Positions 18,740 to 60,774 of a stretch of 64,000 bases of DNA are shown one piece after another. The stretch is taken from assembly GCA_030264375.1 (NCBI GenBank), contig JASCQW010000061.1:118583046-118647045 (forward strand), read 5' to 3'. The notes beneath the pieces were generated by a model. That model saw nothing but the letters and a program-made list of their open reading frames with translations. It was not told the DNA's origin and did no database searches. This DNA comes from Carcharhinus longimanus. Taxonomy: Eukaryota. Each line of letters starts with the position of its first letter. The stretch's first letter is position 1. A program made the position numbers and the translations under genes.

Positions 18740-19160
18740 GTACTTCCCCCCCTACTCCCCCACCACCACCAGAAAAATGTGACCCACATCCTCCCCCCAC
18801 CCCCACCCAGAGAACGATCTGACCCGCCACCCTTCTGCCCCCTACATCTGAGTCAGAGAGCCGTTGGAAGCACTGTACGGGCTTCTTCAGCAGCTGGAGC
18901 GCCCGATTCAGACTTTCATTTAGCAGGTCCGTTACGGCGCGGTTCCGGATTGGCAAACGCGGTTATAAAGGGGGAAAGGCTGATAAAGTTGGGCGGGCAG
19001 TTCATTAATTCAATTTAAATGCAAATACATTTAAATTGCTGTTGCGCAAAGCGGATCGCCGCCATTCCCGGGTTTCGGTAGAGTGGCAATCCGGTAAAGT
19101 CCTCACATCTGACTTTACCACACTTTCGCGCCCAAAACGGCAATGGTAAAATCAGGCCCG
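18740..19160. mobile_element. GC-rich TIR/MITE-like element
   Basis: AT-rich near-palindromic core (CAATTTAAATGCAAATACATTTAAATTG) and end GGTAAAATCAGGCCC abutting a CR1. Confidence 0.5.
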
Positions 19161-21068: not shown

Positions 21069-21519
21069 ATCTTTGCTGGTCTTATTTCCTCCTCATTTCT
21101 TCAGTTCCTCTTTGCACCTAAAATATTCTACTCGATTGCCTATTGTATTAGGATCCTGACCTTTATCACAGGCCCCCTTTGTCTGTTTTATTTTAATTTC
21201 AATTTCTTCAGGCATTCAAGAATTTCTAGTTTTGGATGCCTTTCCCCCTAACCCTCAATATCCAGTCTGTACCCAAATTAGCATTTCACTGAAGGCCTCC
21301 CATTGCTCAGCTATGGTTTAAACTTTGTTTCCATCCCAGTTGAGACAGATACCTTTGCAACACCGTGAAATGAACCGGCTTCCAGCTTATACCATGACTT
21401 TTTCGGTAACTATTCCAAATGTAATTGTATTTTGTGTTCCTCGACTGGAAGAGAACAGTCTTGCCTGGTGATTGTAGAGTGGTGTTCATTCATTTGTTGT
21501 CATAGCATCTACATGGCAT

Positions 21520-21962
21520 TTGGCCTCTGATCTTCAGTTAAGCGTTCTCCAAGGCGGCCCTCACGACATACAACAGCGCAGAGTCACTGAACAGAAACTG
21601 ATAGCCAAGTTCTGCATACATAACATGGCCTCAACCAGATCTTGCACGTCACACTATCTGTAACCCCCACAACTTGCCCAGACTTGCAAAATCTCACTAA
21701 CTTTCCTGTCTGGAAACAATACACATCTNNNNNNNNNNNNNNNGCTTAACGCTCTCTCCACTCACATTGTCTGTACCTTTAAGACTTGATTAGCTGTAAA
21801 GACTCACATTCCAATCATTAGTCATGTAAATTGAGTTGGTGTCTTTGTGCCCTGTTTGTGATCAGAACTCCCACCCAGCTGATGAAGGAACACCAGTTCC
21901 GAAAGCTTGTGGCATTTGCTACAAATAAATCTGTTAACCTGGTGTCGTGAGACTTCTTACTG
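21520..21962 (+). mobile_element. Penelope-like element 3' part
   Basis: ASDLQLSVLQGGPHDIQQRRVTEQKLIAKFCIH... (GIY-YIG C-terminal region), then pLTR and hammerhead, ending GAGACTTCTTACTG. Confidence 0.8.
21875..21912 (+). ncRNA. Minimal hammerhead ribozyme in Penelope-like element
   Basis: CCAG-CUGAUGA-A-GGAAC acca GUUCC-GAAA-GC-UU-GUGG. Core intact; closing pair of stem I mismatched. Confidence 0.7.
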
Positions 21963-24900
21963 AGTCTCAGTGTTCTCAGAGATCCATTTCCAGGGTGTCC
22001 ATCCTCTTTCTTCAATGGTGGGTCAGTGAAATGGGTCAATATGGCACCCAGATATGATGACAGAACTAGCGCCATCATGCCTGCCCCACCGTGGAATATA
22101 GCGTTAAGCTCCCGGTTGCATAATTAATGAGATCGGAGCTGGAAGATACGGCATTGTTTCTTGCCAGCCTTCAGTCGGAAGCGTACCTTGTTCCTACCCC
22201 CGCCACAGGACTTGTCCCCTGTGGGAGAATGCCACCTCACGTTCCCAGTTCTGATTGACATCATTAACTCTGTGGCATTGTTCCATGCCAATGTTTTCTT
22301 GGCAATAATCTATCGAAGTAACTATTCAGTGACTGCGTACAACTCTATTATTGTAAGGCTTACTGTGTTTGCCAATATTTGTCTAAATGAGATTGGAACA
22401 TGGTGCTCAAGGCCAATGCAGCTTATCGTGTCATTTTTTTTTTCTAGGTTGGTATTCTATGCAACCACACATAGATGACATTCTAACTCATACAGACCGA
22501 GCTTGTATCGTTGAAACAAGTCAGACCACAACATCCGAACGTAGCCCAGCGCTCAAAATTTCTATTTTTCATACTCTGTTCCCTATGGATGCTTATTTTT
22601 TGGTGCTTGCTCCATTTGCTCTCTCAATGGTTTAAAAAAATGCATACTATCTCAATGGTGTAACACTGCATTACTGGTCAACGGTGTAAAGAAAATAATT
22701 GATCTCAGCTGGCTGTCCTTTCCCTGGTTCCTTCCCTAATGTGCAAATCAGCCAGAACGCCCATTTCTGTTACTTGTATCCCCTGCTAAAAAGTGTATCT
22801 GAGTCAGGACCGACGATAGTTACGATCCTCCTGTAGTCAACCAGTCAAGACCATCGGTCAGGCTAACTCAGATGCCACCTGATTGATGTACCAATGGTGC
22901 TGCGTTTCTGTCTTCCTGCCCATCAGTTACTGACATTTCAGGCACCGTTGTGAAAAACACAAAAGAAAGTGAGCAAAACACAAGTTTGACGGACAGAAAT
23001 TGACAAAAAGATAGCTTCAAAATCATTAAAAACATTTTGGAATAAAGTCAACAATGGATCAAATCAAATGTTAACATGCTCGTGATAACACAAGTTGGTG
23101 GAGTCTGTTTAATAAAGTTGCTACGAATTCAAGTCTGACGTTAGCTACCTTCTGTGATGTGGCAAGAGCCACTGCCATCAGTTAATCCTCCAGCCTTCGA
23201 GATTCCAGGCGCTGAAGTGGCAAATGTAGCAAGTCCTGGAAAATGGTTTTTTTCCAGGCAGAGAGAAAAATTTTCAGGGAAGCTGCGAACTCACCAACAT
23301 TTCCCCATATCTTTACGACCGGCCATGTACAGAGATGGAGACAGATAGATCCGACCACTTTTCTCTGGCCATAATTTCAAGGGCCAATCGAAATGACTGC
23401 TTCGTTAGACGTTTAAATTACTTTTTCTTCACTTATAGTTTCTTCCCTGTTTGTATCCTGCAGAATTCTGACTTTCTCCTCTGTAATATTATGGTTATGG
23501 TAGATAATAGCAAGGGATGGTCAGTAAAATCCTATATTTTTAGCAGTCCAAAAGCCCCTTTAATCTGTCACAGCATATTCTTAGACTGCTTTCCGGTTTC
23601 TCTGATCACTTTTGTTTTAAAATGTTTCCCTTCATTTAATTCCATTTTAATTGACCTATTAATTCATTTTGAAGACAAAATATTTAATTTACTTTTCTTT
23701 TCTTGGGCATATATTGATGAACAATTTCAGCTAAATCAGTATGTGTGTTATCAGGAGTTTTGTGTCTACAGTGTATATGGTACATAGCCACGCGATTAGT
23801 CAGTCAATTTTCTCAGACTTCGCTATTCCAATCTCTGTGATTGCTGAGACAATTAATCATGAAAGAGGGGTGAGAGGTCAGAGATGTAACAGACAACAAA
23901 CCAATTATGTATTTGCAGTGCCACTTTTCCAGACAGCTGCCAGAGTTAAGTTCTTCCTGCTCACAAATACATTCCACAGCTTCAACAGCCTTAATTTACC
24001 TCTGGTTTAAAGGGTGGGGAGTTTACTCATAATTTTGTACTATAAAACAAATAATGTAAATGACATAACAGCAAATTAACTGACAGGTGAACAAAATTCC
24101 AACTTTATTTGCAGTCAAGAGCTACAATAAATTAACAGGTTGCTCGTACAAGAAAACGTCAGCTGCATATAGAATCTAGTTACAACAGTGAATTTAACTG
24201 GTGGCTACTTTATTTTACAGAATTCTAATCAAGTGTAACAAACACCAATTTGGACAATAAAATACACAAACTGAAAATGTGAAAATATCTCATGGAGAAC
24301 AGGTAAAGAGAAAAGATGGTGTTAGACTGGAAAGTACCCAATTCCACTGAGGTGAAAGAGAATTTATTCCATGCAAATTGGTTGGAAAGCCCCCTGGAAC
24401 TTATAATCTAATTGTATTGGTGCAAAATTGATCGTGTGTGGGTTTTCTGAGTTGTCTGAAGGACCCAACTGGAGGGCACATTCCCTAACGGTCAATTTTA
24501 AGTTACTGAGCAACAAACAAAACAAGAACAGATCATTTCCTGCTGCACAAGGGCTGTTCTTTGGATGCCAAGAAAAGCTGTTTCCAATTGCAAGAAGATT
24601 AATGTTTTTAAAGCTACTGACATGACCTGATCAATGTCTGTGAATGAAAAGATTTATAGACAGTTTTGAGCTTGTGTATTTTCAAACAAATCCAGTGTTC
24701 AAAGGAAGTCATACGAAGTTTTGTAAAAACTGGGTAAAACGTTCATAGTTTTTAACGAGCAGAAAAAAAATTTAGCCACCGAAAACTGATGACACATTTA
24801 TGCACAGAGTTAGCAATTATTTTAAGGCTCATAAATATAACTATTTTGTTTTTGTCATGTTCTAGTTGTACAAACAGCAAAATCTCACTCCATTATAAGG

Positions 24901-25375
24901 CATGCAAATACAGCAGCTCCCAGGACAAAGGAACCAGATGACTGATTATGCAGGCATTTTTGAGATGGAAAGTTTGAAATTTCAGAACTATTTCTTCAAC
25001 ATATACCTTGCTGCAGTTATCCAAAGTCTTGGTGAGGTTCTGGAATATCGTGTGCAATTTTGGTCTCCTTATCTGAGGAATGATGTTCTTTCTACAGAGG
25101 GAGTACAGCAAAGGTTTACCAGGCTGATTCCTGGGATGGCGGGGCTGATGTACGAGGACAGACTGGGTCAGTTAGGATTATATTCGCTGGAGTTTNNNNN
25201 NNNNNNNNNNNNNNNNNNNNNNNNNNNNNNNNNNNNNNNNNNNNNNNNNNNNNNNNNNNNNNNNNNNNNNNNNNNNNNNNNNNNNNNNNNNNNNNGGTGT
25301 TGGGATGGCATAGAAACCTATAAAATTATAACAGGACTGGACAGGGCAGGAAGGATGTTCCCAATGGCGAGGGGC

Positions 25376-25529
25376 CTGTTTGTGAACAGAACTCCCACCT
25401 ACCTGATGAAGGAGCAGCGCTCCAAAAGCTAGTGGCTTGTGCTACCAAATAAACCCATAGGACTTTAATCTGGTGTTGTGAGACTTCTTACTGTGTTTAC
25501 CCCAGTCGACTGCCTGCATCTCCACATCA
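25376..25529 (+). mobile_element. Penelope pLTR fragment inserted in a CR1
   Basis: Hammerhead relic plus terminus ...GCATCTCCACATCA; the CR1 resumes at GGGGAGTCCAGAAC. Confidence 0.8.
25399..25435 (+). ncRNA. Hammerhead ribozyme relic (GAAA changed to AAAA)
   Basis: CUAC-CUGAUGA-A-GGAGC agc GCUCC-AAAA-GC-UA-GUGG. G12 lost, consistent with CpG decay. Confidence 0.65.
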
Positions 25530-27789
25530 GGGGAGTCCAGAACTAGGGGTCACTATCTGAGGAGACCATTTAGGACCGAAACGAGGAGAAATTTCTTCAC
25601 CCAGAGAATGATAAGCCGACGGCATTCTCTACCACAGAAAGCAGTCGTATGTTTTCAAGGAGGAGTTAGATGTAGCTCTTGGGGCTAAGGATATGGGAGG
25701 GAAAGCAAAAAGAAGGGTTACTGAGTTGGATGGTCAGCCATGACCATAGCGAACGGCAAAGCAGGCTTGAGGGGACGAATGGCCTACTCCTGCTCCTATT
25801 TTCTATGTTTCTACACGAAAAGGTTCAAGAGCCAAAACAAAAGAGTGGCTGCAGGCCAATTACTGTGCCATGTTGCTGGACTGTTTATACTGCTGCAGCA
25901 AGACCCTGGATCAGTAATTGCAAAGTCCACAGGAGGTGGTGCAGAAGGTGGTCATTCGGTCCACAGAGAGTTTTTTGTGCCAACTTCGTCTGCTTTATTG
26001 ACAGTTGTTCTTAATTTTATTCAAGAGGAGCCGATACAGATTTCAGCCCACAAGAATTAACAAAATTGCAATTTAAAGAACATAGGAGAAATATCCACAA
26101 TTCACCCTAACCAGCAATAAATGAAGCCATCCCTGCAAAACATGACACGAAATGTTGTGAAGTAAATACACTCAAAAATTAAAGAAATTGCAGATTATAT
26201 CTTGGAGTTCAACACACCCTAGTGGCAAAATCTAAAACTACATCAGAAAACATTTCATAGCTTTCATCAATCAAGACAGTTGTACCCCGTCATTTTTTTT
26301 AACGACCTGCGTATTATTTGTACGTTAATACGCCGTTTATTTATAATATTCAGGTCATGGGCATTAACAGAGACGTTCACCCAGTGCTCATGCATATAGG
26401 ATGTGATTGTAGGGTTGAAGATCATGGAATCCCTACAGTGCAGAAGGAAGTTATTTGCCCATCAAGCTTGCACAAACAACAATCTCACCCAGGCCCCTGT
26501 CCCTGTAACCCCATGTATTTATCCTGCTAATCCCCCGACACTAAGGGGTAATTTACCATGGCCAAGCAACCTAACCCGTACATCTTTGGAGTGTTGGAGG
26601 AAACCCAAGCAAACACGGAGATAATGTGCAAACTCCACACAGACAATGACCTGCAGCTAGAATTAGAACCAGGTCCCTGGTGCTGTGAGCAGCAGTGATG
26701 CAGATATGTAATGTGTATCTTTGTAAATAAGAAGTCCTGAGTGCATAAAATCTAAGCTTCAGTTCTATCCTTCACTGCCTGACTTTCAGAGTTCTAACCT
26801 CGTGTTTCAATGCCTGCATTCATATAAAGATTTCATGTAAAAATCAATGAGTATAAAATAGTCATGTTGGCAAGAAAGAATATTTTATGAAATCATGCAT
26901 AATTAAAATTAATGGACATAAAATACTGCAGAGCTCATTGCACGATATCCCAACATGTAACATTATTGTGCACATTTGTACGAAGAACGTAAGAAATAGA
27001 AGCAGCAATAGGTACTGTTAAAGGAGTATAGGATTACTTGGGACAAAATGACTAATAGATTAAAGTAATTTAGAGTGAATATAGGACAGAAAAAGGACTA
27101 AGTACCTGAAGTTACAAAGGTGCTGTTTTGCATAAAAATACATAGAAGCACTGTTAGAGAATTTAAACATATATTTTTCAATATTCTGTACACCTTGGCC
27201 AACTACACGCTTCCCCAAGGCATGGTGGAATATAGCTAAGTAAAAAAGAACCATTTTCCTTTGAAACAATACAACTACTAAGTGAAATAGAAAAGCACTC
27301 TCTTACTAGCGCGGGTCTCAGATAGTTTGGGCAATCCCGGACAGCCAAATGAATAGAGTAATACAATTTTTCCGAAAAAGAATTGCTCAGTACATAGTGA
27401 GACGGTCGGAAAAATGTTCCGGATTTACGTATTGAGGTTGCTAGGACACGGTGGGCAACAACTTCCAGACTGTACGGACCTATATATTTTCATGCTGCCA
27501 GATGGTGGGATATTATTGGTCAAGGTAAAAAATTCATACTAACATGATTGGCTCACCTGGCTAGGATGAACAGAATAGGCGGGCAGATGATTGCTGAAAA
27601 ATGTATAAATGTAATACTGATAATGTAAATTAGAATAATTTAGGGCTGCCCTAAAGCGTTCTCGCACACGTGGACCAGGCTCGGGCAACAATAGAACACA
27701 TCTTCAACCAGAATTACTGTCTCCGTGAGCTCTTTGTATTTGCTAAGTTGCAATTAATTACGTAAAAGCCAGCAAGATACTTACATCGA

Positions 27790-31020: not shown

Positions 31021-31191
31021 CTGCATGTTCCTCAGGAGCTGGAAGATCTCCATTGTTCTTGAAACAATGTCTTGCACCGTCTCTTGGCCGATTCGACAGA
31101 GAGAAGCTGTATTAACTTCACGTCCAGCCTGGGCCTGGGGTCCAGAAAATGCGCCAGACATTCCAGCACCAGGCACTGGGGGCGTTGCCAT
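31021..31191 (-). CDS. MED30: Mediator subunit 30, first coding exon (57 codons)
   Basis: MATPPVPGAGMSGAFSGPQAQAGREVNTASLCRIGQETVQDIVSRTMEIFQLLRNMQ matches the vertebrate MED30 N-terminus. Phase-0 donor CAG|GTTAGT at 31020. Upstream acceptor (pyrimidine tract, TAG at 31229-31231) suggests the exon begins at 31228. Confidence 0.97.
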
Positions 31192-32949
31192 GACTCCCTT
31201 TCTTCTTACACGTCAATGATACGAAATTCTAGTAGTAAGGGAATTGCACAGAGAAGACAGGAATATTTCAAGCCATATTTAGTAAAGAAATGAAGAATGC
31301 CATATGCATGCATTGTGTAAAATGTCTGCACTAATTTGTTTAGCGATTGATAAAGCATATAAACTTTTTGATGTAATCCCACTAGTCAGAATCAAATTTG
31401 TGACACGCTCAGGAGGTTCAGCTGATGCCATTAATGAACAGAAAAACATTTGTTTGTAACGATACCAGAATCCCATATGTGCTGTTGAATCACAAAATCA
31501 TCCCATGAGGCTTATTATCCATATACACAAATGCAATTTCATTCTCATTTGTTAACCACACATGGAAGCCCTCCAGCTGCTGCCTGTGTGATCAAGGTCT
31601 ACTTTTTTCTGAGTCAACGAACTGCAAATTTGTGTTATTTAGTGACATAAATGTTTGCACGTATTGCAATTTATAATGCCAAGGACTTAACCATTTCAGA
31701 CGCTAAAAGAAACAGGATTTTACTGAGAATCGAGGAGTCTTACAGCAGTACAGGTCGAATTTCCTTTATTTGTCATTTCAAACACATCCAAAAAGTGCAT
31801 TTGTTTTGAAACTCATCGATCTTCATTGCGGCAAGTCTGTGACTTAAGCTGCCGCGAACCTCACCGACTGCACTGCAGCGTGGGAAGTTGAGTTATTTGA
31901 CTGCACTGTTTTCCTTGCAGACCCTCTCCAAGCACAATTGCAAATGGTGCCACAGGTGGAAAATTATTGTCGGTTCCCCATATTATTCATTCAGTGGCAC
32001 ATCTTACTTTTCTAACCATTTTATTAAACTATATAGCTAGCCTAAGCTTTGGCCACTGCAACGCAAGGAGGCCGAGGCCCATATGCAGTATGCAAAAACT
32101 GAATTCCGTAACTTTATCAGCTCCAAGGGTGTCAGATAAAGGATACTCAAACTGCAGCACGCCACAGTTTAATAAAGACATTTTAACAGCAAGCCAGTTA
32201 GAGGAAAAAATATTCTAGTGGTAGGTTTCCTTATTTTCAAGATGGTGCGAGACACAGGCCCATGAAAGAGCGGACCGTAACTAAAAATCCATCTACCATA
32301 CCCTTGGCTGACTAAAATATCACGCTCATATTCAAAATGATCAATTCAGGTAGCATCTATGCCTGCAATTTGTGACAGCATTCTACACTTCTACCACCCT
32401 TTTCGTGAATAAGTCATAAGTCATAAGAAATAGGAGCAGGAGTAGGCCATCTGGCCCTTCGAGCCTGCCCCGCCATTCAATAAGATCATGGCTGATNNNN
32501 NNNNNNNNNNNNNNNNNNNNNNNNNNNNNNNNNNNNNNNNNNNNNNNNNNNNNNNNNNNNNNNNNNNNNNNNNNNNNNNNNNNNNNNNNNNNNNNNGCCT
32601 AGTTCATTCAGCCTCTCCTCATAGCTCAACCCCCTCAACTCCGGTATCAGCCTAGTAAACCTCCTCTGCACTCATGAGTGGCATAGTGATTAGCACTGCT
32701 TCGTCACAGTGCCAGGGACCTGGGTTCGATTCTCTGCTTGGCTCACTGTCAGTGTGGAATCTGCATGTTCTCCCCATGTCTGTGTGGGTTTCCTCCCACA
32801 GTCTGAAACTCGTGCTAGTGAGGTGCATTGACCCGAACAAGCGCCCGAGTATGGCGACTAGGGCAATTTCACAGTAACTTCATTGCAGCGTTAATGTACG
32901 TCTTACTCGTGACACAAATAAATAAACTTTATCTTCTGTCCTGCCAGGT

Positions 32950-35460: not shown

Positions 35461-38400
35461 AAGAGATTTTAAGAGGTCAACTTCCCTAGGCTCTGCCACC
35501 ATCAGAACAAAAAAACCTTCATCACGATCCTAAAAGTATCAAATGATCACACAATCTTCCTTCTCCTATGAAATGCAAGCCTAGTTTGTACAGTTCTCAT
35601 CTCATAATTGAGCTATTGGGAGTCCTGGTATCATTCTGGTAAATCTGTGCTGCACTCCTTCCAAGGCTAATTAATCCTTTCTGATCTGCCGTGCCCAGAA
35701 TGGTACACGGTATTTCAGTTGCGGCCTAACTGGGGCCTTGTGCAGTTGCAGCAAAACTTCCTCCCCTGGAAATCTTTCTTTGCATCTACTATAACTCAAT
35801 GATCTCAGTACACGAAAACCTTTCTGGATTGCCGTTGTTTCCAGCATTTAAATAATACTCAAGTCCAGCCTTTTAGGATCCAAAATGGATAATTACATGC
35901 ATTGAAATTCATCTGGCACAGTTTTGCCCAAGAATCAACATCTCATTGCAATTTTATGCTCTCATTTCATCAATCTGAGCCATAATTTCCACCCAGCAGT
36001 GTAAAGAGATGTCCTGCTGGAATTACAACAGTAAGCACACTGACCTGCTCGAGAAAACTTTGTTCAAACATCCATTAGCTGGAGCTGCTTGGGGCCTGCA
36101 ATGAAAGAGGCCTCTGTCCAGTGCAACACCAGTGAACGCAGGAGACCGTGCCCCCCTTTTTTTAATGCACTGCCAGCTGTAAAGCAGGCATGTTTAAAGG
36201 GGCCAGTGAAACCGACAGGCCAAGAAGATAAGTGCTTGGAATTTGAGGTCAGGTTCGAATCAGGGCAAGTTGGGTGGTAGGGCACACTCGTGCAAGTGTC
36301 ATCAGGGTCAGGTTCGATTGCATGGGTGTTGGGTTGGGGTCAGGTCCACTGGCACAGGTGTCAGATATAGTCTACTCAAGCCAGGTCCACAGGTTGGCAA
36401 CGAGGGGGTAAGGGAGCGGTACTCCCATGCAGCTAGGGTCTGTGGGGCAGGACGGGCAGTCAGAATGGAGAGGATTGGGTATTTCATTGGGTTGATTAGT
36501 CGATTGCCGGGGTGACCCGTATGTATCTTGGTCTGGGAGTTTAAAGTAGTAACTTTGAAAATGAGAAGTGTTTTACTTCTTCTAACTCTTCCAGAATAAC
36601 TGGGAGAACCACCCAGAGTTAGCAATTTCAATTGCTTTTTCAGATGGTTCCGAGCACAGTGTAATCGTGCAAGGGAAGTTCATGCTTCTGGACAACGCCT
36701 GCGTGGATTCTTACCTGGGAAATTCCAAGAAGGATTCCCCAGTGGATCTTTGGAGTTCCCCCTTAAATCTGATGGTGAGCCTTAAAAGTACAGACCTTCA
36801 TGTTGTTATGAGCAACACTGAATATGAAGGTAATGCACATATACACACAATATATATTACATACAGAATCATAGAATCCCTACAGTGTAGGAGGCGACCA
36901 TCTGGCCTAGCCTGCACCGACAATTCCACCCCCAGGCCCTATCCCTGTAACCTGACACATTTACCCTGCTAATTCCCCTGACACTAAGGGGCAATTTAAC
37001 ATGGCCAATCAACCTAACCCGCACATCTGGCTGCATGCATCTACCTGCTTAGACTACATTCAAACCCATCTTATTCCCAACTATCAACCATAGAATCACA
37101 GAAACTTAGAACAGAGAAAAAAGCCATTCAGTTCACCATGCTCATGAGCAGCTGTGCTTATCCAATACCCTCACTTTTTGCATTTAACTCTAAATTCCTC
37201 ATCCTTTTCACACACCAGCCCAATTTCCTTTTAAAATTATCTATGGAATCACTCACACCCCCTTTCCAGGTATAGCATTCCAGATTCCAACAACTTTAAC
37301 TATTATAATCCATTAGGCCATACTGTACATACTAGTGTGGCTTTGCCTTTTAAGAATACAGATTTTCCTGTCAAATGTTTTACGGCAATTTCGTAAAGCA
37401 AAATTCTTGATTAGGCGCATTATACATTTTTATTTGATTCGTCCTTTCAGAGTATAAGAATTACAACGAGTTACCTATTGTAAATTACATGAACTCACTG
37501 AGTGTTTTCAATCACATAAGGAGATCAAGTACAATATCACCATAGTCTAGAACCTTGACAAGGTTCGTGAGATGAAGATTTACTGACAATTGAAAGGGCA
37601 CAGAGTAGCAGGGGAAACTATATACCAGGCAGCGCAAAAACGAACTATAAATTTTCCAAAGGGGTCAATTAGCTTTTTCAATGTTGTGAGCAGAAAGAAA
37701 ATTTTAAAAAGTTACTTTTTCTTCAGCAAAGTAATACTCCAGGCAAAACTTTATCCCTCAGACCCTCCTGCATGCAGGCTGCTTCAATGGTGATCAATTT
37801 CTCTCTGCCATTTTGTAAAGTGATAAACAATGGTGAATGTGAAATAAAATCCAAGGCAGAATCTTAAATATTTAAATAGTTAACATCCATACATCTGGCC
37901 GATGATGATCAATCCTCACACACCACAACTACCAAATCTAGAGTTGCTGCTATCATAGACAACATCGTGTACATCAAGGTCAGCATCAATTAAGCCATAT
38001 GGCTCATTTTTATCATCAACTTGTTTCCATAAATTTCCTTGTCGCCCAAGTACAGCCGAGTCCTGTACAACCTCAAACGTTTACCCAGTTCTACTGGCCC
38101 CATATCTGATTTGGCACATATCTCTTCTTCCAACTTATCTAGCTCACCCCTCTGCCAGTGAAATCTTTACAGATCTTCACTAATCAGGGATGGACTCTTT
38201 ATATGTTCCTCGATAGGCTTCCCAGTTCCAGCCTTTGCACTTATCAAGTGTGGAACTCGATGCTCAAGTTCTTTGCTCCATCCAATGGCTCCTTGTGTCC
38301 CAGGAAACTTCAAGATACGTTTCTTATCCTTCAAATTCACAATGGGCTCCTCTCACCCAATGCAATCAGCTCCTCCAGCCAGAATATACCTATTCTTGCA

Positions 38401-38479
38401 ACTCCAGATTTCCCTTCATTACTTAGTAAGTTTCTGGCAACTTCCCACATCACTCCAAAAAGGGTCAATCTTTTAATTG

Positions 38480-38830
38480 GGAGAGATGGTGACAGTGCTA
38501 ATGTCACTGAGCTAGAAATCCAGAAGCCCCAGGAGCATGGGTTTAAATCCCACTATGGGCACGGGTGGAATTTAAATACAGTTAATAAAAAAAAACCCTG
38601 GAATTTAAAGCTAGTTTTAGCAATGATGACTGTGAAACTATTGACGGTCACAAAAAAAACCTCTCATTTAGGAAAGGAAATCTGCCATTCTTAACTAGGT
38701 CTGGCCTACACGTGACTCCAGAGCTACAGTAACGTGGCTGACTCTTAACCACTCTCCAAGACAATTAGGAATGGGCAATAAATGCTGGCCTCGTCAGTGA
38801 TGCCCTCATTTCATGAGCAAATTTTAAAAA
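38480..38830 (+). mobile_element. tRNA-derived SINE (SlmI/Meta-SINE-like) with LINE-derived tail
   Basis: Core GGAAATCTGCCATTCTTAACTAGGTCTGGCCTACACGTGACTCCAGA; tail GGGCAATAAATGCTGGCC. Copies at 51095-51410 (+) and 49930-50135 (-). Confidence 0.65.
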
Positions 38831-40067
38831 ATTATGACCCTGTCCTTTGGGATTTTCTTCCAAAATAACATTGCTCTCTGTCTCTCTCGCTCTCATCTTC
38901 AAAAACAAATCACTTATTCCTTTAGTTTTTTTCCTTGTCCAGATCTGCCTATCAGTAAAATACTCTTTTCTGTGATGAATATTATACTAATGCCTAAAAT
39001 TAATAACAATCAAGATTGTTATTTCAATGAAAATACAGTCAGAATTAAAACAAACAGCAGTATCTCCTCTCAGGTAAAAAGATCATTAAGTGTTTTTTTA
39101 AAAAATCCTAATTGTTTTTCAACTATTTTGATGTCCCTGCTTCCATGTAATTCAGAGCGGTCTGACGTACAGCAGTGACTCGCTTCTCAGTCTATGAGCT
39201 ATAACTAATGTGCAGCCTGGGAAATTAAACACAAGGGATTTCAGACCCTCAAAAGAAAAAGATAGGAGACAGCAGATGCCAAGCACATACTTCCTTTAGA
39301 CATGCTGTGTATGGAAGCCAAACAACAGGCATTCCTCAAGGGGTTTACCATCGCCCGAGAAACTGGGTCAGAAACACTTAGCTGCAATTCCTTTGGGATA
39401 CTTACAATTAAAATGGTGGCAGTGGCAATTTAATGCTGAGCTGATACAGTCTATTAGAAAACTATGTCAACAATTCCTCTAAGATTCTGTGGGCTGCTTA
39501 GCTGACCCTGAGCTGCTGCAAATACTGCTCATCAGGCAGTAAATAAGGAAGCTGGAACTACCTGCAACCCTGGGGCAGAGAAAGAGAGGAAAATTTCACC
39601 TTTTAGCAGATGGAACATAAGAGATGTTCTTGTTTCTATATAATCAATAACTTATAAAACTTGCAGCTTCAAAGAGTTTGCAGTAAATAGTTGGAATTAC
39701 AACGTACGTGTCCACAAGGATAGCTGACCACAGCTTGCATCGCACAGTGAGGACCCTCATGGAGTGAACTCTTTCACTCGTTCATCACACTGCAAGGGAA
39801 AAACTGTCGCTTTAAATGGGAGTACCACTTTAAAACACATCCAAACCTTTGGCTGGTTGACACCAACAGAATTAGTCTCCCGGACAAATGCCACACGAAC
39901 CCTTTATTTCACAATACTGGGGCTTTTGAAAGGTAAGTGATGTTGGCATCTGTCTAAATGTCATTCCTTCAGCCATGATAAACAAGCCGGAAAGGCCGGC
40001 CGCAGCAATGCAGGAGCACACATGCCTCAGTACCGTCTCGCCAACTGTTACTCGCTTCAATACTCAC

Positions 40068-40200
40068 AGCCCGGCCTCATGCCAGTTTCCCAGTCGTCAG
40101 GAAGGCGCCCCGACCGCAGCTCATTGAGACAGGCACTCAACAGGGAGACAGCCAGCCCTGCAGCCCGCGCCTGCGCACACGCCGAACAGCCTGACGGTCA
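40068..40200 (-). other. MED30: Candidate non-coding first exon of MED30 (5' end uncertain)
   Basis: Consensus donor GCT|GTGAGT at 40067-40062 at the downstream edge of the CpG island; would splice to the acceptor at 31228. Confidence 0.5.
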
Positions 40201-40219
40201 CACCTGAGCCCAGACTACC

Positions 40220-40672
40220 AGACTGCGCTTGCGCCGGGATCGGAGCGTCCGACATTGCGCCTGCGCCCGGATCGGATAATACGACATCGCGCCTGCGCAC
40301 AAAATCTCGCAACCTGACATCGCGCCTGCGCACAAAATCTCACATTCTGACATCGCGCCTGCGCCCAAAATCTGAGAACCTGACATCGCGCCTGCGCACA
40401 AATTCTGAGGGCCTGACATCGCGCCTGCGCACAAAATGAGAACCTGACATTGCGCCTGCGCAGTAAGAAGTCTGACAACACCAGGTTTAAGTCCGACCAA
40501 TTTATTTGATAGTAAACTCACTATCAAATCAAACTTCTTACTGTCTTTACCCTAGCCCAACGCCGGCATCTCCACATCATTGCACCTGCGCGCAGACCGC
40601 GCCTGCCCCAAAACCTGATAACCTGACACTGCGCCTGCGCGCAGAACCGGCAGCCGGTACACGCGTCTGCGC
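40220..40672. repeat. ~33-bp minisatellite (core TGACATCGCGCCTGCGCACAAAAT plus variable linker), interrupted by a Penelope fragment
   Basis: GCGCCTGCGC at 40257, 40289, 40322, 40355, 40388, 40421, 40452, 40631; degenerate units near 40224, 40581, 40598, 40662. Confidence 0.92.
40461..40579. mobile_element. Mini Penelope insertion inside the promoter minisatellite
   Basis: CAGTAAGAAGT...ACTTCTTACTG inverted pair plus terminus GCATCTCCACATCA. Flanking CATTGCGCCTGCGC / CATTGCACCTGCGC is a 14-bp duplication with one mismatch. Confidence 0.78.
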
Positions 40673-41080
40673 AGCAGCCTCTCAAGGGCTGAGTGAGTGA
40701 CAGGCAGTGGATTTAGTTCAACCATTTGGAGAATAGAGTCATGGTCATTATATCAATGAGGCAGGCAGAGAGAGACTGAGGACAACTGGTGTGTTTCAGA
40801 CAAGTAGAGGAGACTAAAACAGAATTCTTTAAAACTGTATTCAGTATGTAAACAGCAAACCCAGCTGGAAAAGGGGCAGCTGTGGATTTAGTTGTAGATC
40901 GTAAATCAGGGCAAGTGGAAGAACATTTTGGTGATAATATTCATAATTCAGTCAGGTTTAGCACAGCTATTGAAAAGGATAAAAATAAACCAAGAGTAAT
41001 AATTTTTAAATTATGGAAAGTTCTGTTTTAATAAATTAAAGTGAACCGGAAGCCTCTAATTGAAATTTGATGAGCGTCGG

Positions 41081-42516
41081 AACATAAGAACATAAGAAGT
41101 AGGAGCAGGAGTGTTAGTTTTGTCACCGGCCGTATCCGCCAGATACCCGCTAGCGTGGCAGCCACCAGACAACTCTTGGTTTCGTTGNNNNNNNNNNNNN
41201 NNNNNNNNNNNNNNNNNNNNNNNNNNNNNNNNNNNNNNNNNNNNNNNNNNNNNNNNNNNNNNNNNNNNNNNNNNNNNNNNNNNNNNNCCTCACCAGTACC
41301 CTGTACAGTTGCAGCAAGACCTCCCTGCTTTTATATTCTATCCCCCTCGCTATAAAGGCCAGCAAACCATTTGCCTTCTTGATCACCTGCTGCACCTGCA
41401 GACTGGGTTTTTGCGATTCGTGCACACGGACCCCCAGGTCCCTCTGCACCGTAGCACGCTGCTGCTTTTCACCTTTTAAATAATAATCCCTCCTACTACT
41501 ATTTCTGCCAAAGTGGATAACCTCACACTTGCTTACATTATACTCCATCTGCCAGGTCCTCGCCCACTCACCCAGCCTATCCAGATCCCTCTGCGGACTT
41601 TCCACACCCTCCACGCAATTTGCTTTTTCACTCATCTTCGTGTCATCAGCAAATTTCATCACCCTACACTCAGCCCCCTCCTACCATCTATATAAATGGT
41701 AAGTAGTTGAGGCCCCAGCACCAATCCCTGCGGCACTCTACTAGTCACCAACCGCCAACCAGAATAGCACCCATTGCTTCCAACTCTCTGCTTCCTATTA
41801 GACAACCAATCCTCTATCCACGCTCACACCTTACCCCCAATCCACCCTAACCTTCTGTAGCAACCTTTTATGAGGCACCTTATCAAACGCCTTTTGAAAA
41901 TCTAGAAACACCTCATCCACCGGTTCCCCTCTGTCTACTGCATGAGTCACATCCTCATAGAAATCCAATAAATTCGTCAAACACGACTTCCCTTTAACGA
42001 ATCCGTGGTGCGTCTGCTCGGCCAAACCATTCTTTTCTAGGTGCCTCGCTATTTCTTTGATGATGGATTCTAGCATTTTTCCAACTACAGATGTTAAACT
42101 ATCCAGCCTATAATTCCCTGACTTTTGTCTGCTACCTTTTTTAAACAGCGCCGTAACATTAGCCGTTTTCCAATCTTCCGGCACTTGCCCAGGATCCAGC
42201 AAATTTTGCTAAATAATTACTAAGGCATCCATTATCACCTCTGCCATTTCCTTCAGAACTCTGGGATGTATTCCATCCGGTCCCGGGGACTTGTCCACCT
42301 TCAGTCCCATTAGCCTATCAAGCACTACGTCTTTAGTGACAGTAATCACATTCAGGCCCTCAACTCCTACCATCCTTCTATCTTTAATATCCGGCAAACT
42401 ATTCGTGTCCTCTTCCGTGAAGACCGAGGCAAAAAACTTATTTAAGGCCTCTGCCATTTCCTCATCTCCCACCACTAAATCCCTCCTCTCATCCTCTAAG
42501 GGTCCAACATTCACTC
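41081..42516 (-). mobile_element. Young 5'-truncated CR1 LINE (ORF2 RT)
   Basis: KSPGPDGIHPRVLKE, FLDFQKAFDKVPH and KFADD motifs; (TTCTTATG)n tail at 41081-41100. Confidence 0.92.
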
Positions 42517-44169
42517 TAAAACTGTATTCAGCCTGTAAACAGCAAACCCAGCTGGAAAAGGGGCAGCTGTGGATTTAGTTGTAGGTAGTAAATCTGGGCA
42601 AGTGGAAGAACATTTTGGTGACAGTAATCATAATTCAGTTAGCTTTAGCACAGTTATTGAAAAGGATAAAGATAAACCAAGAGTAATAATTTTTAAATCA
42701 TGGAAAGTTCTGTTTTCATAAATTCAAGTGAACCGGAAGCCTCTAATTGAAATTTGATGAGCACCAGGGCAATGGGAAGAGTTTAAAGAGAACGTGAAAA
42801 GCGTTCAGAAAAATATCCACAAAGAAAAGGGTAAACTTCCAAGTTCTCTGCCCCATCCATGTCACAGAGGATAGACAGTGGGCAAAAACAGACCGCAGAA
42901 AGTAAAAAAAAACTAGCAGCAGGAGTAGGTCATCTGGCCCCTCAGGCCTGTACCACCATTCAATAAGATCATGGCTGATCGTTTTGTGGACTCAGCTCCA
43001 CTTGCCCGCCCGCTCACCACAATCCTTAATTCATTCACTGTTCAAAAATTTATCCATCTATCTTTGCTTTAAGAACGTTCAATGAGGTAGCTTCAACTGC
43101 TTCGCTGTGCAGGGAATTCCACAGATTCACAACCCTTTGGTGAAGAAATTCTTCCTGAACTCAGTCCTTAAGTTGCTCCTGCTAATTTTGTGGCCATGTG
43201 CCCTATGTCTAGTTTCACCTGCCCGTGGAAACAACCTCCCTGCTTCTATCTTATCTATTCCCTTCATAATTTTATATGTTTCTATAAGATCTCCCCTTGT
43301 TCTTAATTCCAATGATTATAATCCCACTCTACTCAGTCTCCTCATAAGCCATGAAGTCTTAGAGGAGTATAGAAGGTACAGGAGTGAAATTGAAATGGTA
43401 ATTATGAGTGGAATATTCTCTGTCCTGTGGATGAATGCTTGAAGGTGGGAATGGAGCAAAAATGGAAAGGAGGGTCAGGTCAGTTGGCCATATATTCCTA
43501 CCTTCAGGTACTTCTTTTCTGATACCAACCAAATAAACTAACTCAAATTAACATAGGGATTCCACCTCCAGGTAACATTGCTGGAGATGGATCATTGTCA
43601 GTTGCTGCTTCCCACCTGGCAGAGTCAGATCGCCAATAATGTATTAATTAGTGAGGATAATTGGAGTAACCTCCCAATGAGTGACAAACCCTACAGCTCC
43701 GTGGAGGCAAGCTCTCAGTGCAGAAGGCTCCACACCCCAATTATGGGGCCACAGGCAGGAAAGGTCAGAGTCATGGCCCAAACAATTCCTCTGAAAATGT
43801 TTCCCCTCCATCCCAAAGGAGCTTTCTGGCTTCAGTCCTCACTTGGTTTGATATTTTGGTGTGCCTTTAAGGGGACTTGCATTTTGAGGCCTCTGATTGG
43901 GACTGCTGCCTCAGGAACCCACCCACCATCCTTAATTGGAGTTTAGAAGAATGAGAGGGAACCTTATAGAGACATGTAGGATTCTCAGGGGTCTTGACAG
44001 TGTAGATGCTGAGAGATTGTTTCCTCTTGTGGGACAGTCTAGGACCAGAGTGCATAATCTCAGAATAAATGTTGCCCATTTAAAACAGAGATGAGAAGAA
44101 AGTTCTTCTCTCATGGGCTAGTGAATCTGTGGAATTCTCCACTGCTGAGAGCTGTAGGGGCTGAGTCAC

Positions 44170-54523: not shown

Positions 54524-54669
54524 TTAATCTTTGGGTTCCTGGCAAAACAAACATGTTGGTTCTTGATCCGAATACTGTTCCACTTGAATTGTGATAGAAT
54601 GAAAATTGAAAGTGTCAAACATTCTCTGTGTCATTTCCTTCAGTACTTGTTGAGGATTCACTTCATCAG
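54524..54669 (-). CDS. SLC30A8: ZnT8 terminal coding exon (146 nt including TAA)
   Basis: (A)DEVNPQQVLKEMTQRMFDTFNFHSITIQVEQYSDQEPTCLFCQEPKD*. CAG acceptor; C-terminal CLFC as in ZnT8. Confidence 0.95.
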
Positions 54670-55198
54670 CTGTGAATAACAGGACAAGTAGTGATTCTTA
54701 ACGAAGTACAATCGATTTATTAAGTATATGCAAATAGATGGTTCTTAATATGCTAGCTGATAAATAAACAGGATGCATCACAGTGCCTTCATCACACTAT
54801 TATTAGACTGACAGCTTCAATGTCCGCACCCAATAATTTCTTGTAATTTTTCTTACTGTTCAGGAAAATTAAATATCCTGCTAGTTGCATGTGATTCTAA
54901 TGCATATGGCCACAGGGAAGACCAGCAACTGCGAAGACACCCAAAAAGCCTTTTGTAGAATGGAAAGAGGAAAGTCCGAGATATTTGGACCAAAGTGAGG
55001 ATTCAGGATTTAATGAAGTAGGGCAGAATTGGAAAAGGAGGTGCAGGACTAAGGAACATCAAAAGAAGGGCAGAGAAGTCAGACGTTATGTCTGAGACCA
55101 GCAAGGTAATCTCCTGTCTTGTATATATGCAGATTGCATTGGTTCCACGAGGGCCTCTCTGAGGAACTGTACATCTATGAGTTGTACTGCTCCAAGAA

Positions 55199-55265
55199 CA
55201 GTAAGACCTCTCACAACACCAGGTTAAAGTCCAACTGGTTTATTTGGTAGCACTAGCTTTCAGAG
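55199..55265 (-). mobile_element. Truncated Penelope pLTR end
   Basis: CAGTAAGACCTCTCACAACACCAGGTTAAAGTCCAAC...CACTAGCTTTC, homologous to 18186-18255. Confidence 0.7.
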
Positions 55266-56412
55266 TCTCGAGCTCCTCGAAGAGAGGCTGCACTCCTCCC
55301 CCCCACCCCGTCCCAACCCCAACCCCAACATCTACACTGCTTCTGCAGGAAATTCTATACCATCACCGACAAGATTGATTCATTTCTGCATGCCTAACTT
55401 ATCGTGTGAAGTAAGCATCACTAGAAAAGTAAATTTTCCAGCATTGGTTTTCAGCCCACCAATCTCGGCGCGGGCTCGTTGGGCCGAAGGGCCTGTTTCC
55501 CGTGCTGTGTTGTTCTTTGTGTTGTCCTTTTTATCTCCATGATGGAGGACCTCATGGACTTTGATTCTGGAATCTACATGAAAGTGTGCAGGATTTACCA
55601 CCAAGCAGCCTAGCACGTGTTTTGCCACCGTGGGAGGTGGCCCACCATTGGCTGGTCCCACTGTTAATAACGGGGTTTCCTACAGAATGCTCTCCTCAAT
55701 GCCAGGAAACCCGCAATGGGGGTACATAGTTGGTGGGACCGGAAGATCTCGCCAGCGTGAAGGGCTGGAAAGTTCCAGTCAATATTTATTTCCTCTGCGG
55801 TCTCTGTATTGTAGAACGTTTATTTCTCGTTACTCTTGCATGTGGAGGCAGCGGTGCAGCCTGTCTTTCGTGTTTTGACTGTGTGCAACAAATAACCATG
55901 TTTAGTTCATCATTAATAAAATTTGGATCACACAAAACCAAGAGACTCGGAAATATACCACCACTTATAAAGAAGGAAACAAATCAAAATACCGTCATGT
56001 TTATGGGTGGATGCTGAGAGGAGAAATTAGTATTGTTAAAATTAACCCCCCTCCTGTCTATCTCAGTGATCTGCTTTAAGAGGATGGAGTGCGTGGTGTT
56101 CAGGAGGAATGGGAGAGTGACCTGCTCCTCTTGTCTGCTCTCTGCACTGTTGATCAGTCCTTGATTTCAGGGAGTCAGTGTCAGTGCTTTCTCCTTGCAG
56201 GTTTAATAAATGGAAAAGATTTCAGCCTAAAGCTTATCTTGTGCAGCTCTTGGAAGAAGGTTGGGTTGTGCTCATTGGAGAAGAGAGTTGTGCTTCTTTT
56301 GCCTGCTGCTCTGGCATGGTGGTCATTTGGCACAGCTTGAAACTAAATGGGCACGACTGTCTCGTATGCAATCAGAGGTGAGCTGGCAAGGTGGATACAG
56401 AACTGGATACAG

Positions 56413-56548
56413 AATGTGTCTTTATATGGCTTTTCTCTGACCAGAATCTTCCACGCACCTGACGAAGGAACACCGTTTCCGAGAGCTTGTGGGATTACTA
56501 TCAAATAAACTGGTTGGACTTAAACCTGGTGTTGTGAGACTTCTTACT
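56413..56548 (+). mobile_element. Penelope pLTR fragment inserted in a CR1
   Basis: Close to 48421-48557. Confidence 0.78.
56455..56492 (+). ncRNA. Hammerhead ribozyme relic (GAAA changed to GAGA)
   Basis: GCAC-CUGACGA-A-GGAA caccgu UUCC-GAGA-GC-UU-GUGG. Confidence 0.62.
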
Positions 56549-58071
56549 CAATCACAGAAGACAGAGGGTAGCAGTGGAAGGGTGTGTTTCTGAATGGTGT
56601 TCCTCAAGGATCAGTGCTGGGACCTTTGCTGTTCACAATACATATAAATGATTTGGAAGAAAGTATAACTGGTTTGATTAGTAAGTTTGTGGATCTCACA
56701 CAAGTTGGCGGATTTGCGATGAAGACCATCAGAGAATACAGCAGGATATCGATCGGTTGGAGGCTTGGACAGAGAGACGGCGGATGGAATTTAATCCGGA
56801 CAAATGTGAGGTAATGCATTTTGGAAGGTCTAATAAAGATAGCAAATATACAGTAAATGGCAGAATCCTTAAGAGTATTGATAGGCAGAGGGATCTGGGT
56901 GTATAGGTACACTGGTCACTGAAAGTGGCAACGCAGATAGAGAAGATAGTCAACAAGGCATGCTTGCCTTCATTGGCCGGAACATTGCGTTTAAAAATTG
57001 GCAAGTCATGTTACAGCTTTATAGAACCTTTGTTAAGCCGCAGTTGGAATATAGTGTTCAATTCTGGTCGCCACACAATCAGAAGGATGTGGAGGCTTTG
57101 GAGAGGGTACAGAAAAGATTTACCAGGATGTTGTTTGGCATTGAGGGCATTAGCTTTGAGGAGAGATTAAAGAAACTTGGTTTGTTCTCACTGGAACAAC
57201 GGAGATTGAGGNNNNNNNNNNNNNNNNNNNNNNNNNNNNNNNNNNNNNNNNNNNNNNNNNNNNNNNNNNNNNNNNNNNNNNNNNNNNNNNNNNNNNNNNN
57301 NNNNNNNNNNNCCTGAGAGAAGTTACAAGATTGTGAGAGGCATGGACAGAGTGTATAGTTAGAGGCTTTTTCCCAGGTGGAAGAGTCAATTACTCGGAGG
57401 ACAGGTTTAAGGTGTGAGGTTTAAAGGAGATGTATGAGGCAACTTTTTTTTTACACAGAGGGAGGCGGGTGGATGGAACTCGCTGCCAGGGGAGGTATTG
57501 GAAGCAGAAACGATAGTGAGTTTTAAGAGGCGTCTGGATAAATGCATGAATAGGATGAGAATAGAGGGATTCAGACCCCACGAGAATAGGGGTTTTTAGT
57601 TCAGCCGGGCAGCATGGTTGGTGCAGGCTCGGAGGGCAGAAGGACCTGTTCCTGTGCTGTAATTTTCTTTTGTTCTTTGTGTCAATCTTGAAAGATGCTT
57701 TGGTTGAGAGATGGCATCAAATGATTTGCTGGAAATAACCATCGAAACTACTTCCCAACCTTGCTGTTGACCTTCTGGAGAGTGCCTTTATATACACTTG
57801 TATGATGGAAGTTGCCCGGAAAAGGAGAGGTGGCAGCAACGTGCGCTGTTTTTACATTCAGAATGCACCAGTTACAGCAAAAGTATTTAAACTAACTTAC
57901 CCGGGATATCTGTGTGATCTGCTATGCTGCTGCATGGTGTAACTTGGTGGCACAAAAAGCTATAACTGGCATTGAGGAAATTCAGAGCCCATATCTATTA
58001 CTAACTAATAGACAAGAAGCCAGTTAATTGACTCAATTAGGAATTGCCTTTGAAAGTATTTCTTTACTGAC

Positions 58072-58206
58072 CTGTGGCAACATGAGCTGAAAGAATGACC
58101 TGGTTGGTGGTGAGAGCCCAGAGATAAAGGTTGTGCACTGTTTTCACTCCATTAACATCTAGAATCTTTTCCTTCACATCATTGTAATTCAGTCCAACTG
58201 GTACAC
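58072..58206 (-). CDS. SLC30A8: ZnT8 exon (cytosolic C-terminal domain; 135 nt)
   Basis: (G)[47 protein letters not shown] acceptor and G|GTCAGT donor; phase 1/1. Confidence 0.95.
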
Positions 58207-58769
58207 CTTGATGAGAGCCAAAACAAGAGAAATTAAATACTAATATTTGATGTATTTTACATTACAGTCATATTTATACATACATATATATACACATTTA
58301 AAGTATATATTCATAACATGTTCATAGTGCATCTAAGCAATACAATATCTACCTACCGCAGACAACAAAAATGCTCAGCATAATTCATTTTTTCACACTC
58401 ATTTGCTGACTATTGTGCTGTTATCATGTTCCACCACGCACATAGCTTCATACGGTTCAGGATGTGTGCTTTGATTATGAAAAAAATACTGGAAGTTAAA
58501 AAGCAATAGCGTGTTTTCTCATTTGACTCTCGATCATTATGGTATCTATTCTTTCACCTAATCGCAGATCTTCTCTTTTGTTCTTTCTTCCCTCGCCCTT
58601 TCCCTGGCTCTGTACTTGTTTAAATTTGCTACATGGCTACTTTACAACAATTTTGATGAATGTGGGTCAGAAAGGAACAATCCGAGTAACAAAGGTAATA
58701 GGGAATGAATTGTCATTGTTGATTCGAAGATGATGCCTACTCAAGGTTACAGGTTTCTGTCATGGGTTT

Positions 58770-59040
58770 CCAAAATGCCTGGACATGAAGCTACCCATGT
58801 TAATACGTAGGGACCTGTCCTCTGCAAGCACAAAGAACATGACCAGATACAATTTTTGAATTAAACAAAAATCATGGGATCGATGTTTCCCTGCTGAATT
58901 CTCCATTTCAACTTGCCAAGCAGTCACCATCCTTTTCTCATGCAATATAAACTGTTGCTCCTTTTAAAATTTGTATTCTTGCCTCTGTCCTGATGAGTGC
59001 AAGGTGAAAAGCTCCAGCAACATTTTTCTCAGCAATACTC
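58770..59040 (+). mobile_element. Third, older Penelope-like family remnant
   Basis: EATHVNT*GPVLCKHKEH resembles the GIY-YIG C-terminal EAxxI...PxLCxQK motif. Followed by CTGATGA-GTGCAAGGT-GAAA-AGCT at 58990-59013. Confidence 0.55.
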
Positions 59041-60514
59041 TAGAGTAGCATAGTGATCATGGGGAAATTTTAATCTTTATATAGACTAGGCAAACCAAAT
59101 TTGCAGTAATTCCTGGAGGACGAGTTTGTGGAATAGATACAAGATGGGTGTCTAGATCAGTAATTTGAAGAACAAATGGGGAAACAGGCTATTTTGATCA
59201 AGAAGAAAGGGTTAGTTAAAGCCTTATTGTAATGGAGTCTTTAGGGAAGAGTAACCATAAAATGATCGCATTTTATATTGAGTTTGAGTGTGATTTAGCA
59301 AAGTATGAAACTAATGTCTTAAATCCAAATAACTTCGGGGCTTAATGGAAATTTCACTAAAGTTGGAAAACTACATTTAGTTTATTGCGAAAAAGGAATG
59401 GCTAGCATTTCAACAATTAGTGGGACTAAGATGACAAATGTGATGGACCTTATAGAATCCTACAGTGCTGAAGGAATCCACTCAGCCCATCTTGTCTGCA
59501 CTGACTGCAAACCCACCCAGGCCGCACCTGCATAGCCCCATGCATTTACCCGAGCTAGTCTCCTGACACTAAGGGGCAATTTAGCATGGCCAATTCACCT
59601 AACCCACGCATCTTTGGAGTGTGGAAGGAAACCCATGTAGACGTGGAGAGAATGTGCAAACACCACAGACAGTGACCTGAGGCTGGAATCAAACCCGGGT
59701 CTCTGGTGTTATGAGACAGCAGTTAGTACTCTGGTTAGTCCCACTGTACCACCATGCCACCTCAATGACCTACATCTTAGGGTTTTAAAAGTGCAAGTGA
59801 AATTAGCTTTCAATTTCCAAAATTTATCAGATTCTGTAACAGTGCCCAAGCTTAAAAGATAGTAAACATAACTTTGCTATTTAAGAAAAGAAGAAAGAAA
59901 GAAAATGGGGAACTGGAGGTCATATTGGCCTAACATACTACTTAGAAGCAGGAATAGGCCACTTGATCACTCAAACTCGCTCTGCCAATTAAGATCATGG
60001 CCTCAACTTCACTTTCCTTCCTATGCCCTTTGAATCCCTTGCCAATCCAGAATCTAACATCACATGTGGGCAATCTGCTGGAACTTATTATTAGGGATAT
60101 GGTTTCAGAGCACTTCAGAATCACTGAATTGTTACAGTAAATCTTTCCATTTTTCAAAGTTCCGACTGTTAGAAAAACAAGCAGCATGTAATCATACACA
60201 CAAAAAGATCAATGGGTTCAAAAGATTAGTGCCTTTTGATTGATACCATCTTTGTGCAACACTCTTCAATCACTTTGCTCTTCAGATACACATCTCTTTA
60301 CTCTTTGAGCTCATATGCAATTTTTTTTCTTGTGCCGTCTCTTCTGGTGACTTATTCCACAAGTTCATTATTTTTTATGTGAAAATAATTCCCTTCTGAC
60401 TCCTTATGAGAAGTTCTAGGAGAACAGCATGAATTCAAACTGTCTCTAATCAGAACAGAGTCACTAGAATTGAAATGACAATAGAGCTACAATGAGAAAT
60501 GTAGAGATACTTAC

Positions 60515-60620
60515 CTTCCATCAGCACCAAGAAAATATTCCGCAGAACTGAGATTGTTGTTCCCAACACAAACACAGAGAAAATAAATGTGCAGATAGGA
60601 TCAGCTATTTTGAATTCAGG
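60515..60620 (-). CDS. SLC30A8: ZnT8 exon (TM6; 106 nt)
   Basis: PEFKIADPICTFIFSVFVLGTTISVLRNIFLVLME(G). CAG acceptor and G|GTAAGT donor. Not in the ORF track. Confidence 0.95.
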
Positions 60621-60774
60621 CTGGAAGAGACAAAAATAATAAGGCCAATTCTAAATGTTTATCAAATGCCTCCATGAAGCATAAAATGGAATAAAGAACA
60701 AAGAACAAAGAACAACCCAGCATAAACAGCGATGAATTATAACTTTCATGCTTTGTACTAATTTCTCTCTCTTT

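Follow-up and report, generated by a model that had tools for sequence, protein, structure and literature searches.

An old tandem array of NRF1-type motifs in the likely MED30 promoter of Carcharhinus longimanus

Results

The window analysed here, a stretch of 64,000 nucleotides from Carcharhinus longimanus, contains a homotypic array of NRF1-type motifs (40167–40672) inside its sole stringent CpG island. Our explanation as a whole, which we hold to be probable, is that these motifs are the product of old tandem duplication and that the island which they occupy is the likely MED30 promoter.

A motif scan located 13 copies of GCGCCTGCGC at 40167–40672, nine exact and four with one mismatch, in agreement with the initial annotation (nine exact and about four degenerate). 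One further match at up to one mismatch, at position 125, brings the window total to 14; the chance expectation is 0.56 ± 0.76 per window, and 14 was reached in none of 100 shuffles. The published NRF1 consensus, GCGCNTGCGC (PMC10810270), has 10 matches in the window, every one within 40167–40640. This exceeds the nine exact matches to GCGCCTGCGC because the copy at 40225 deviates at a free position only. The proposal that the motif is an NRF1-type site gains support from human TFAM, where an identical 10-mer in the promoter is reported to give almost the full NRF1-dependent activity, which falls about 3-fold with any alteration of a half-site (PMC10810270). In the array, four outer copies carry half-site changes, and three of the seven substitutions within motifs are CpG-to-CpA.

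The seven core motifs (40257–40452) are spaced 32, 33, 33, 33, 33 and 31 bp apart, exactly as first reported. TRF detected a 33-bp array at 40283–40462 (5.5 copies, 87% matches) and a second, 32-bp array at 40224–40298 (2.3 copies), which bears out the suggested origin by tandem duplication. On TRF and unit alignment, the core tandem repeat (40224–40462, forward strand) consists of two 32-bp-type units followed by five 33/31-bp-type units. A 14th, decayed unit at 40200 has three mismatches and lies 33 bp from the first motif. The distal units (40592–40672, forward strand), with motifs at 40599, 40631 and 40663, were joined to the core before an insertion, described below, came between them; with the insertion removed, the spacings across the array are 33, 25, 32, 32, 33, 33, 33, 33, 31, 17, 32 and 32 bp. 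As in a regulatory VNTR, the repeat runs head to tail with a TF site in each unit. The hexamer (T)GACAT, initially placed ahead of every motif, precedes seven of the 13, namely the seven core ones (TGACAT in five, CGACAT in two); GACAT is absent from the other six.

Among the seven core units, none of the 10 motif columns varies, versus 17 of the 23 linker columns. The conserved block is 16–18 bp long and so exceeds the NRF1 10-mer; it includes CTGACAT, which falls outside the NRF1 consensus, and each core unit can be written as this block, CTGACATYGCGCCTGCGC, followed by some 15 bp of variable linker. A block scan over the seven units, allowing any position, gave P = 0.007 for a block of 10 bp and P = 0.0002 for one of 16 bp, with related, motif-selected units counted as independent in this and the following tests. 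The core also merges two unit subtypes whose linkers are just 43–61% alike. Within the 33-bp subtype alone, conservation of the 10-mer did not reach significance (P = 0.41 for four units, 0.24 for five), but that of the 18-bp block did (P = 0.012 and 0.035, respectively). Preservation within units is thus likely, though moderate, and takes in more than the NRF1 site.

This pattern raises the alternative that the whole 18-bp block is preserved and bound by another factor, or by NRF1 with a partner, such that NRF1 alone would be insufficient. In the four gap-free units all nine changes fall in the 15-bp linker (the scan P of 0.012 above), and the decayed unit at 40200 retains CCTGAC while its NRF1 motif is lost; TGACAT may be compared with a TALE/MEIS-TGIF core or with a CRE-like half-site. 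Yet six of the 13 copies lack GACAT, among them the proximal copy at 40167, and patchy gene conversion may account for the block. We regard this alternative as rather unlikely.

A coding origin of the repeat (33 bp being 11 codons) was considered and rejected: over six frames the variable codon columns comprise 3 synonymous versus 25 non-synonymous ones, three frames contain stops, the 31- and 32-bp units break the frame, and the two Pfam matches to array frames are both far below the cutoff.

No two units of the array are identical. The 33-bp units differ from one another at 3–6 positions and the longest exact repeat is 26 bp, which suggests that the array is old rather than an active, hypervariable VNTR. 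Near-identical units favour ongoing copy-number change in minisatellites; here the units are diverged and an insertion interrupts them.

The insertion, like the decayed unit at 40200, had been overlooked in the initial annotation. It is a 119-bp fragment of a dispersed repeat (40461–40579), recognised by self-comparison and by its target-site duplication, and it accounts for a motif spacing of 130 bp. Inverted arms (40461–40475 and 40529–40543) are followed by a 36-bp tail (40544–40579) that one sibling shares; the first 52–61 bp match seven siblings in other parts of the window, at 81–93% identity. An 11-bp target-site duplication flanks the fragment on the forward strand. Its left copy (40450–40460) contributes to the intact motif at 40452 and its right copy (40580–40590) makes up the 'degenerate' motif at 40582, so the latter is a copy of the former; the two differ at one position, a CpG-to-CpA change. 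The array is older than the insertion, and no homogenisation has taken place since then. The fragment contains 1 CpG per 61 bp versus 0–2 in its siblings, numbers too sparse to read. At the junction of its opposed halves there is a short inverted repeat (40501–40532; 13-nt arms, 6-nt loop), and its second half lacks about 30 bp that the siblings have.

From its sequence, the fragment is likely to derive from a Penelope-like element. Such elements are described as leaving inverted truncated copies with a 30–40-bp tail at one end (PMC8557442), and they typically carry hammerhead motifs (PMC6155905). The insertion matches the first description, and a pattern search found a hammerhead-like core with a 5-bp stem in three of the seven siblings. 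These cores belong to the siblings at 18276 (reverse strand), 21879 and 48468, with a variant near 25403. Three sibling copies were folded; one centroid structure contained the core, and the z-scores were non-significant (0.20, −0.06 and −0.82). Unlike Penelope-like elements, the inserted piece itself has no hammerhead core, RT or GIY-YIG domain. Rfam gave no match in the whole window at the gathering threshold and none at E up to 1 in 18000–26000, and no master ORF with RT and GIY-YIG was seen in the window.

The step of about 33 bp had been read as three helical turns, a claim that did not survive calculation. At 10.5 bp per turn the seven core sites fall at 0, 17, 69, 120, 171, 223 and 206 degrees, a drift of more than 200 degrees, so that they rotate round the helix and share no face. 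The resultant length is 0.20 at 10.5 bp per turn, 0.10 at 10.4 and 0.49 at 10.6. The best alignment requires 10.89 bp per turn, a 33-bp step being 3.14 turns. The spacing is regular because the units were duplicated in tandem, and placement on one face does not follow from this.

These data bear on the possibility that the array is a helically phased minisatellite whose copy number varies and tunes MED30 expression between individuals. Such a reading would draw on the 33-bp unit with one site in each, on the 33-bp VNTR of human TRIB3, where stimulated reporter activity is stated to rise about 5-fold from one to five copies (PMC7425993), and on the importance reported for rotational position of NRF1 near the TSS (PMC11269187). 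Against it stand the scatter of the sites around the helix at 10.4–10.6 bp per turn, the lack of identical units, and an insertion, with 8–19% divergence from its siblings, that still splits the array. In addition, most copies would lie outside the −120 to −40 zone that NRF1 is reported to prefer (PMC11269187). We consider this reading improbable.

The array occupies the sole stringent CpG island of the window (39771–40730; thresholds 500 bp, 55% GC and 0.65 o/e). A lenient scan returned 20 segments, the longest at 39876–40830. Over the array the CpG o/e reaches 1.20, versus 0.43 window-wide, a high value that the array owes partly to the repeated motif itself. Towards MED30 the island fades out into unique sequence, in which 280 bp contain 13 CpG, a number reached by 4 of 881 background windows; on the other side it ends abruptly, with a CpG o/e of 0.16 at 40681–41075. 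From CpG retention only, we infer that the island is unmethylated.

The continuation of CpG richness into unique flank also argues against the unit being left over from the internal tandem promoter of a transposon, or being a dispersed satellite that landed at this site, with no role for MED30. Some LINEs have promoters built of tandem monomers, the region is rich in repeats, a LINE fragment lies 400 bp from the array, and a repeat fragment lies inside it. However, the unit has no second copy within the 64 kb, self-BLAST found no repeat in 38810–40247, and none of the 77 stop-free segments of 36500–41187 matched a TE protein family in Pfam (75 had no match, and two had weak, sub-cutoff matches to non-TE families). 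On the evidence of the window, an origin of this kind is improbable.

The LINE fragment (41081–42513, reverse strand; RVT_1, E = 1.6e-10), which we take to be of the CR1 type, belongs to the upstream flank (40827–42762), outside the array. It sits between direct repeats of 249 bp (40827–41075 and 42514–42762) that are 93.6% identical and form an unusually long target-site-like duplication at the LINE junctions, 150 bp upstream of the array. Each repeat copy contains an ETS-like CCGGAAG.

The assignment of the array to MED30 depends on the genes around it. MED30 was correctly named in the initial annotation: its first coding exon (31021–31228, reverse strand; ATG at 31191) matches Pfam Med30 over 31021–31191 with E = 3.5e-13, and its second (17029–17187, reverse strand) with E = 4.4e-19. 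The third (6327–6431, reverse strand) was recognised by eye and its 5′ boundary is approximate. Upstream of MED30, on the same strand, lies a ZnT8 (SLC30A8)-like zinc transporter gene (54524–64000) with three exons (63809, 60605 and 54524–54669); ZnT8 is the best of nine PDB matches to the last coding exon (54524–54669; E = 8.6e-11). The order SLC30A8–MED30 is found in other vertebrates. Since this neighbour ends upstream on the same strand, with poly(A) hexamers at 54466–53301, the MED30 start must lie between 31229 and about 53.3 kb.

Within this interval the first coding exon looks internal by its sequence. A pyrimidine tract and an AG acceptor precede 31228, an in-frame stop lies 5′ of the ATG, and the 300 bp upstream have 35% GC and 3 CpG. 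When 11 promoter motifs were scanned in 31021–32200, a CRE half-site alone was found, inside the exon. The in-frame stop rules out that an upstream exon lengthens the MED30 protein at its N terminus; for the same reason, a protein database search could not confirm the splice.

The main MED30 start might instead lie elsewhere, next to the coding exon or in an assembly gap, with the array serving as an NRF1-bound enhancer, an lncRNA promoter or an alternative promoter. Human MED30 starts in its coding exon, the array is 8.8 kb from the exon with the ATG, and the lenient scan also marks 31026–31275, over that exon, as a marginal CpG patch (merged GC 0.49, o/e 0.54). Furthermore, seven assembly gaps (1,541 nominal N) between MED30 and its neighbour could conceal another island. 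Counting against this are the clean acceptor of the coding exon, the AT-rich, motif-poor DNA upstream of it, the gap flanks, which are never island-like (at most 9 CpG per 200 bp), and the lack of a second stringent island in the window. A start elsewhere is unlikely. On the sole stringent island, the acceptor on the coding exon and the limits set by the neighbour, the array is likely to be the MED30 promoter, as had been proposed.

If the array is the promoter, MED30 is predicted to begin with a non-coding exon 1 (40068–40160, reverse strand) with start sites at about 40090–40190, placed according to the position preference reported for NRF1 (PMC11269187). A candidate splice donor, GTGAGT (40062–40067, reverse strand), lies 100 bp from the proximal motif; it is suggestive only, with a weak consensus (6/9) and nine GTRAGT in 22.7 kb of the same strand. 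The array itself is unlikely to lie within the 5′ UTR because every core unit, when read along the MED30 strand, contains an ATG. In the predicted leader, which begins left of the array, ATGs at 40124 and 40080 (reverse strand) would open at most two short uORFs, with 15 and 4 codons respectively. The poly(A) hexamers are uninformative about direction (AATAAA at 39908 on the sense side, at 40984 and 41030 on the other), and the GC-skew switch at the far edge of the array (about 40660) is one that the motif's own strand bias can produce; U1/poly(A) asymmetry and GC skew thus leave the direction of initiation undecided. A donor-like GTGAG at 40693 (forward strand), just past the array, could together with the AATAAA at 40984 and 41030 mark a short divergent transcript. 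In consensus scans, no SP1, YY1, BANP, ZNF143, E-box, TATA or E2F site was found in 39800–41100, and single ETS-like, CRE half-site and CCAAT matches were near chance.

Elsewhere in the window, positions 1–6750, which span MED30 coding exon 3 and the following intron, have a CpG o/e of 0.82 at 41% GC, compared to 0.32–0.42 elsewhere, and a LINE copy at 21–1236 has an o/e of 0.99 versus 0.08–0.59 in four other copies. By base composition, the region looks like a large low-GC unmethylated domain of a kind that standard island scans miss. Two smaller CpG-rich patches are located in MED30 introns, at 15151–15600 (o/e 0.85, adjoining a 540-N gap) and 18746–19335 (o/e 0.84).

Discussion

We propose that several NRF1 dimers would bind the array and hold the island open, with transcription beginning immediately to the left of the array. 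NRF1 is reported to activate starts downstream of itself, with a rotational preference at −120 to −40, and to hinder starts upstream of itself, preferences described as conserved across vertebrates (PMC11269187). Because of these preferences, the proximal sites (40167 and 40225) alone would set the start site, and starts inside the array would be suppressed by the next site along. MED30 would then begin in a short non-coding exon, at about 40090–40190, and be spliced from 40067 over an 8.8-kb intron to 31228. The distal copies would provide redundancy and occupancy, protecting the island from methylation and keeping it open; being redundant, they should make output saturate rather than scale with unit number. 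NRF1 is methylation-sensitive (PMC6600276, PMC5087959), and in the elephant shark the starts of expressed genes are reported as hypomethylated in an otherwise methylated genome (PMC5437953).

As for the origin of the copies, human germline NRF1 sites are described as strongly enriched for short motif-duplicating insertions, and homotypic clusters can, the authors suggest, arise neutrally (PMC8559717). The copies at MED30 may have come from repeated motif-containing duplications at a germline-bound site, after which the 16–18-bp block would have been preserved better than the linkers, by partial selection, and a Penelope-like insertion would later have split the array and duplicated one motif. 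A more adaptive version, to which we give a small chance, is a selected composite element, an NRF1 site plus a partner site in CTGACAT, that multiplied to a dozen copies through its own duplication in the germline, acting as a methylation shield and strength amplifier that keeps MED30 on beside a tissue-specific neighbour.

If confirmed, the preferred reading, an old duplicated array in the likely MED30 promoter, would place that promoter 8.8 kb from the ATG, with a non-coding first exon that looks unannotated, and would supply, from a non-mammalian genome, a natural NRF1 array of unusual regularity located at a coding housekeeping gene. Its diverged linkers, conserved block and datable insertion make the array a test case for neutral germline duplication versus selection. 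Should such arrays prove common in the lineage and variable in copy number, they would offer a natural test of neutral by-products versus dosage tuners, in which the extra site made by the transposon would be a built-in neutral control.

Open-licence text, surveyed non-exhaustively, contained no report of an NRF1 array at MED30 or in sharks. In human, the MED30 promoter is grouped with the lamina-domain 'escapers' (PMC6506275 Table S1; cf. PMC11535540), a class that fits, by analogy, the need for a robust promoter; it pertains to human only and is silent on the present species. No new mechanism is involved, since repeat-built NRF1 promoters, 33-bp regulatory VNTRs and a bias towards motif duplication have all been published.

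Several of these published systems share features with the array. Human TFAM has the identical GCGCCTGCGC motif but one intact site and no array (PMC10810270). Germline NRF1 clusters resemble it in that NRF1 is listed among the most affected factors and the insertions are often motif-containing tandem duplications, but these are shown in human with insertions of 5–20 bp (PMC8559717), whereas here the units are of 31–33 bp, in 13 copies and in a non-mammalian genome. The TRIB3 promoter VNTR is likewise built of 33-bp units with one TF site each and overlaps a promoter; it differs in that the site is a C/EBP-ATF site rather than an NRF1 site, and it is described as recent and human-specific, with a polymorphic copy number of 1–5 and a demonstrated dosage effect (PMC7425993). 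The MED30 units, in contrast, are diverged and interrupted.

A close counterpart comes from the human TERRA promoters. These are reported as CpG islands in which every 29-bp tandem unit carries an NRF1 site, and their activity is NRF1-dependent and methylation-sensitive (PMC6600276, PMC5087959). In both cases a CpG-island promoter, a predicted one at MED30, is made of tandem repeats of about 30 bp, and the 29-bp-repeat oligo given in PMC6600276 holds the reverse complement of the same 10-mer. The TERRA repeats are, according to these sources, subtelomeric (61-29-37 repeats), present at some twenty chromosome ends, methylated in telomerase-positive cancer lines and drive a non-coding RNA, whereas the array described here occupies one interstitial locus in the window, has other linkers and lies upstream of a coding housekeeping gene; no homology is implied. 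By analogy, then, the array resembles the TERRA type of NRF1 CpG-island promoter, built from repeats, but at a coding housekeeping gene.
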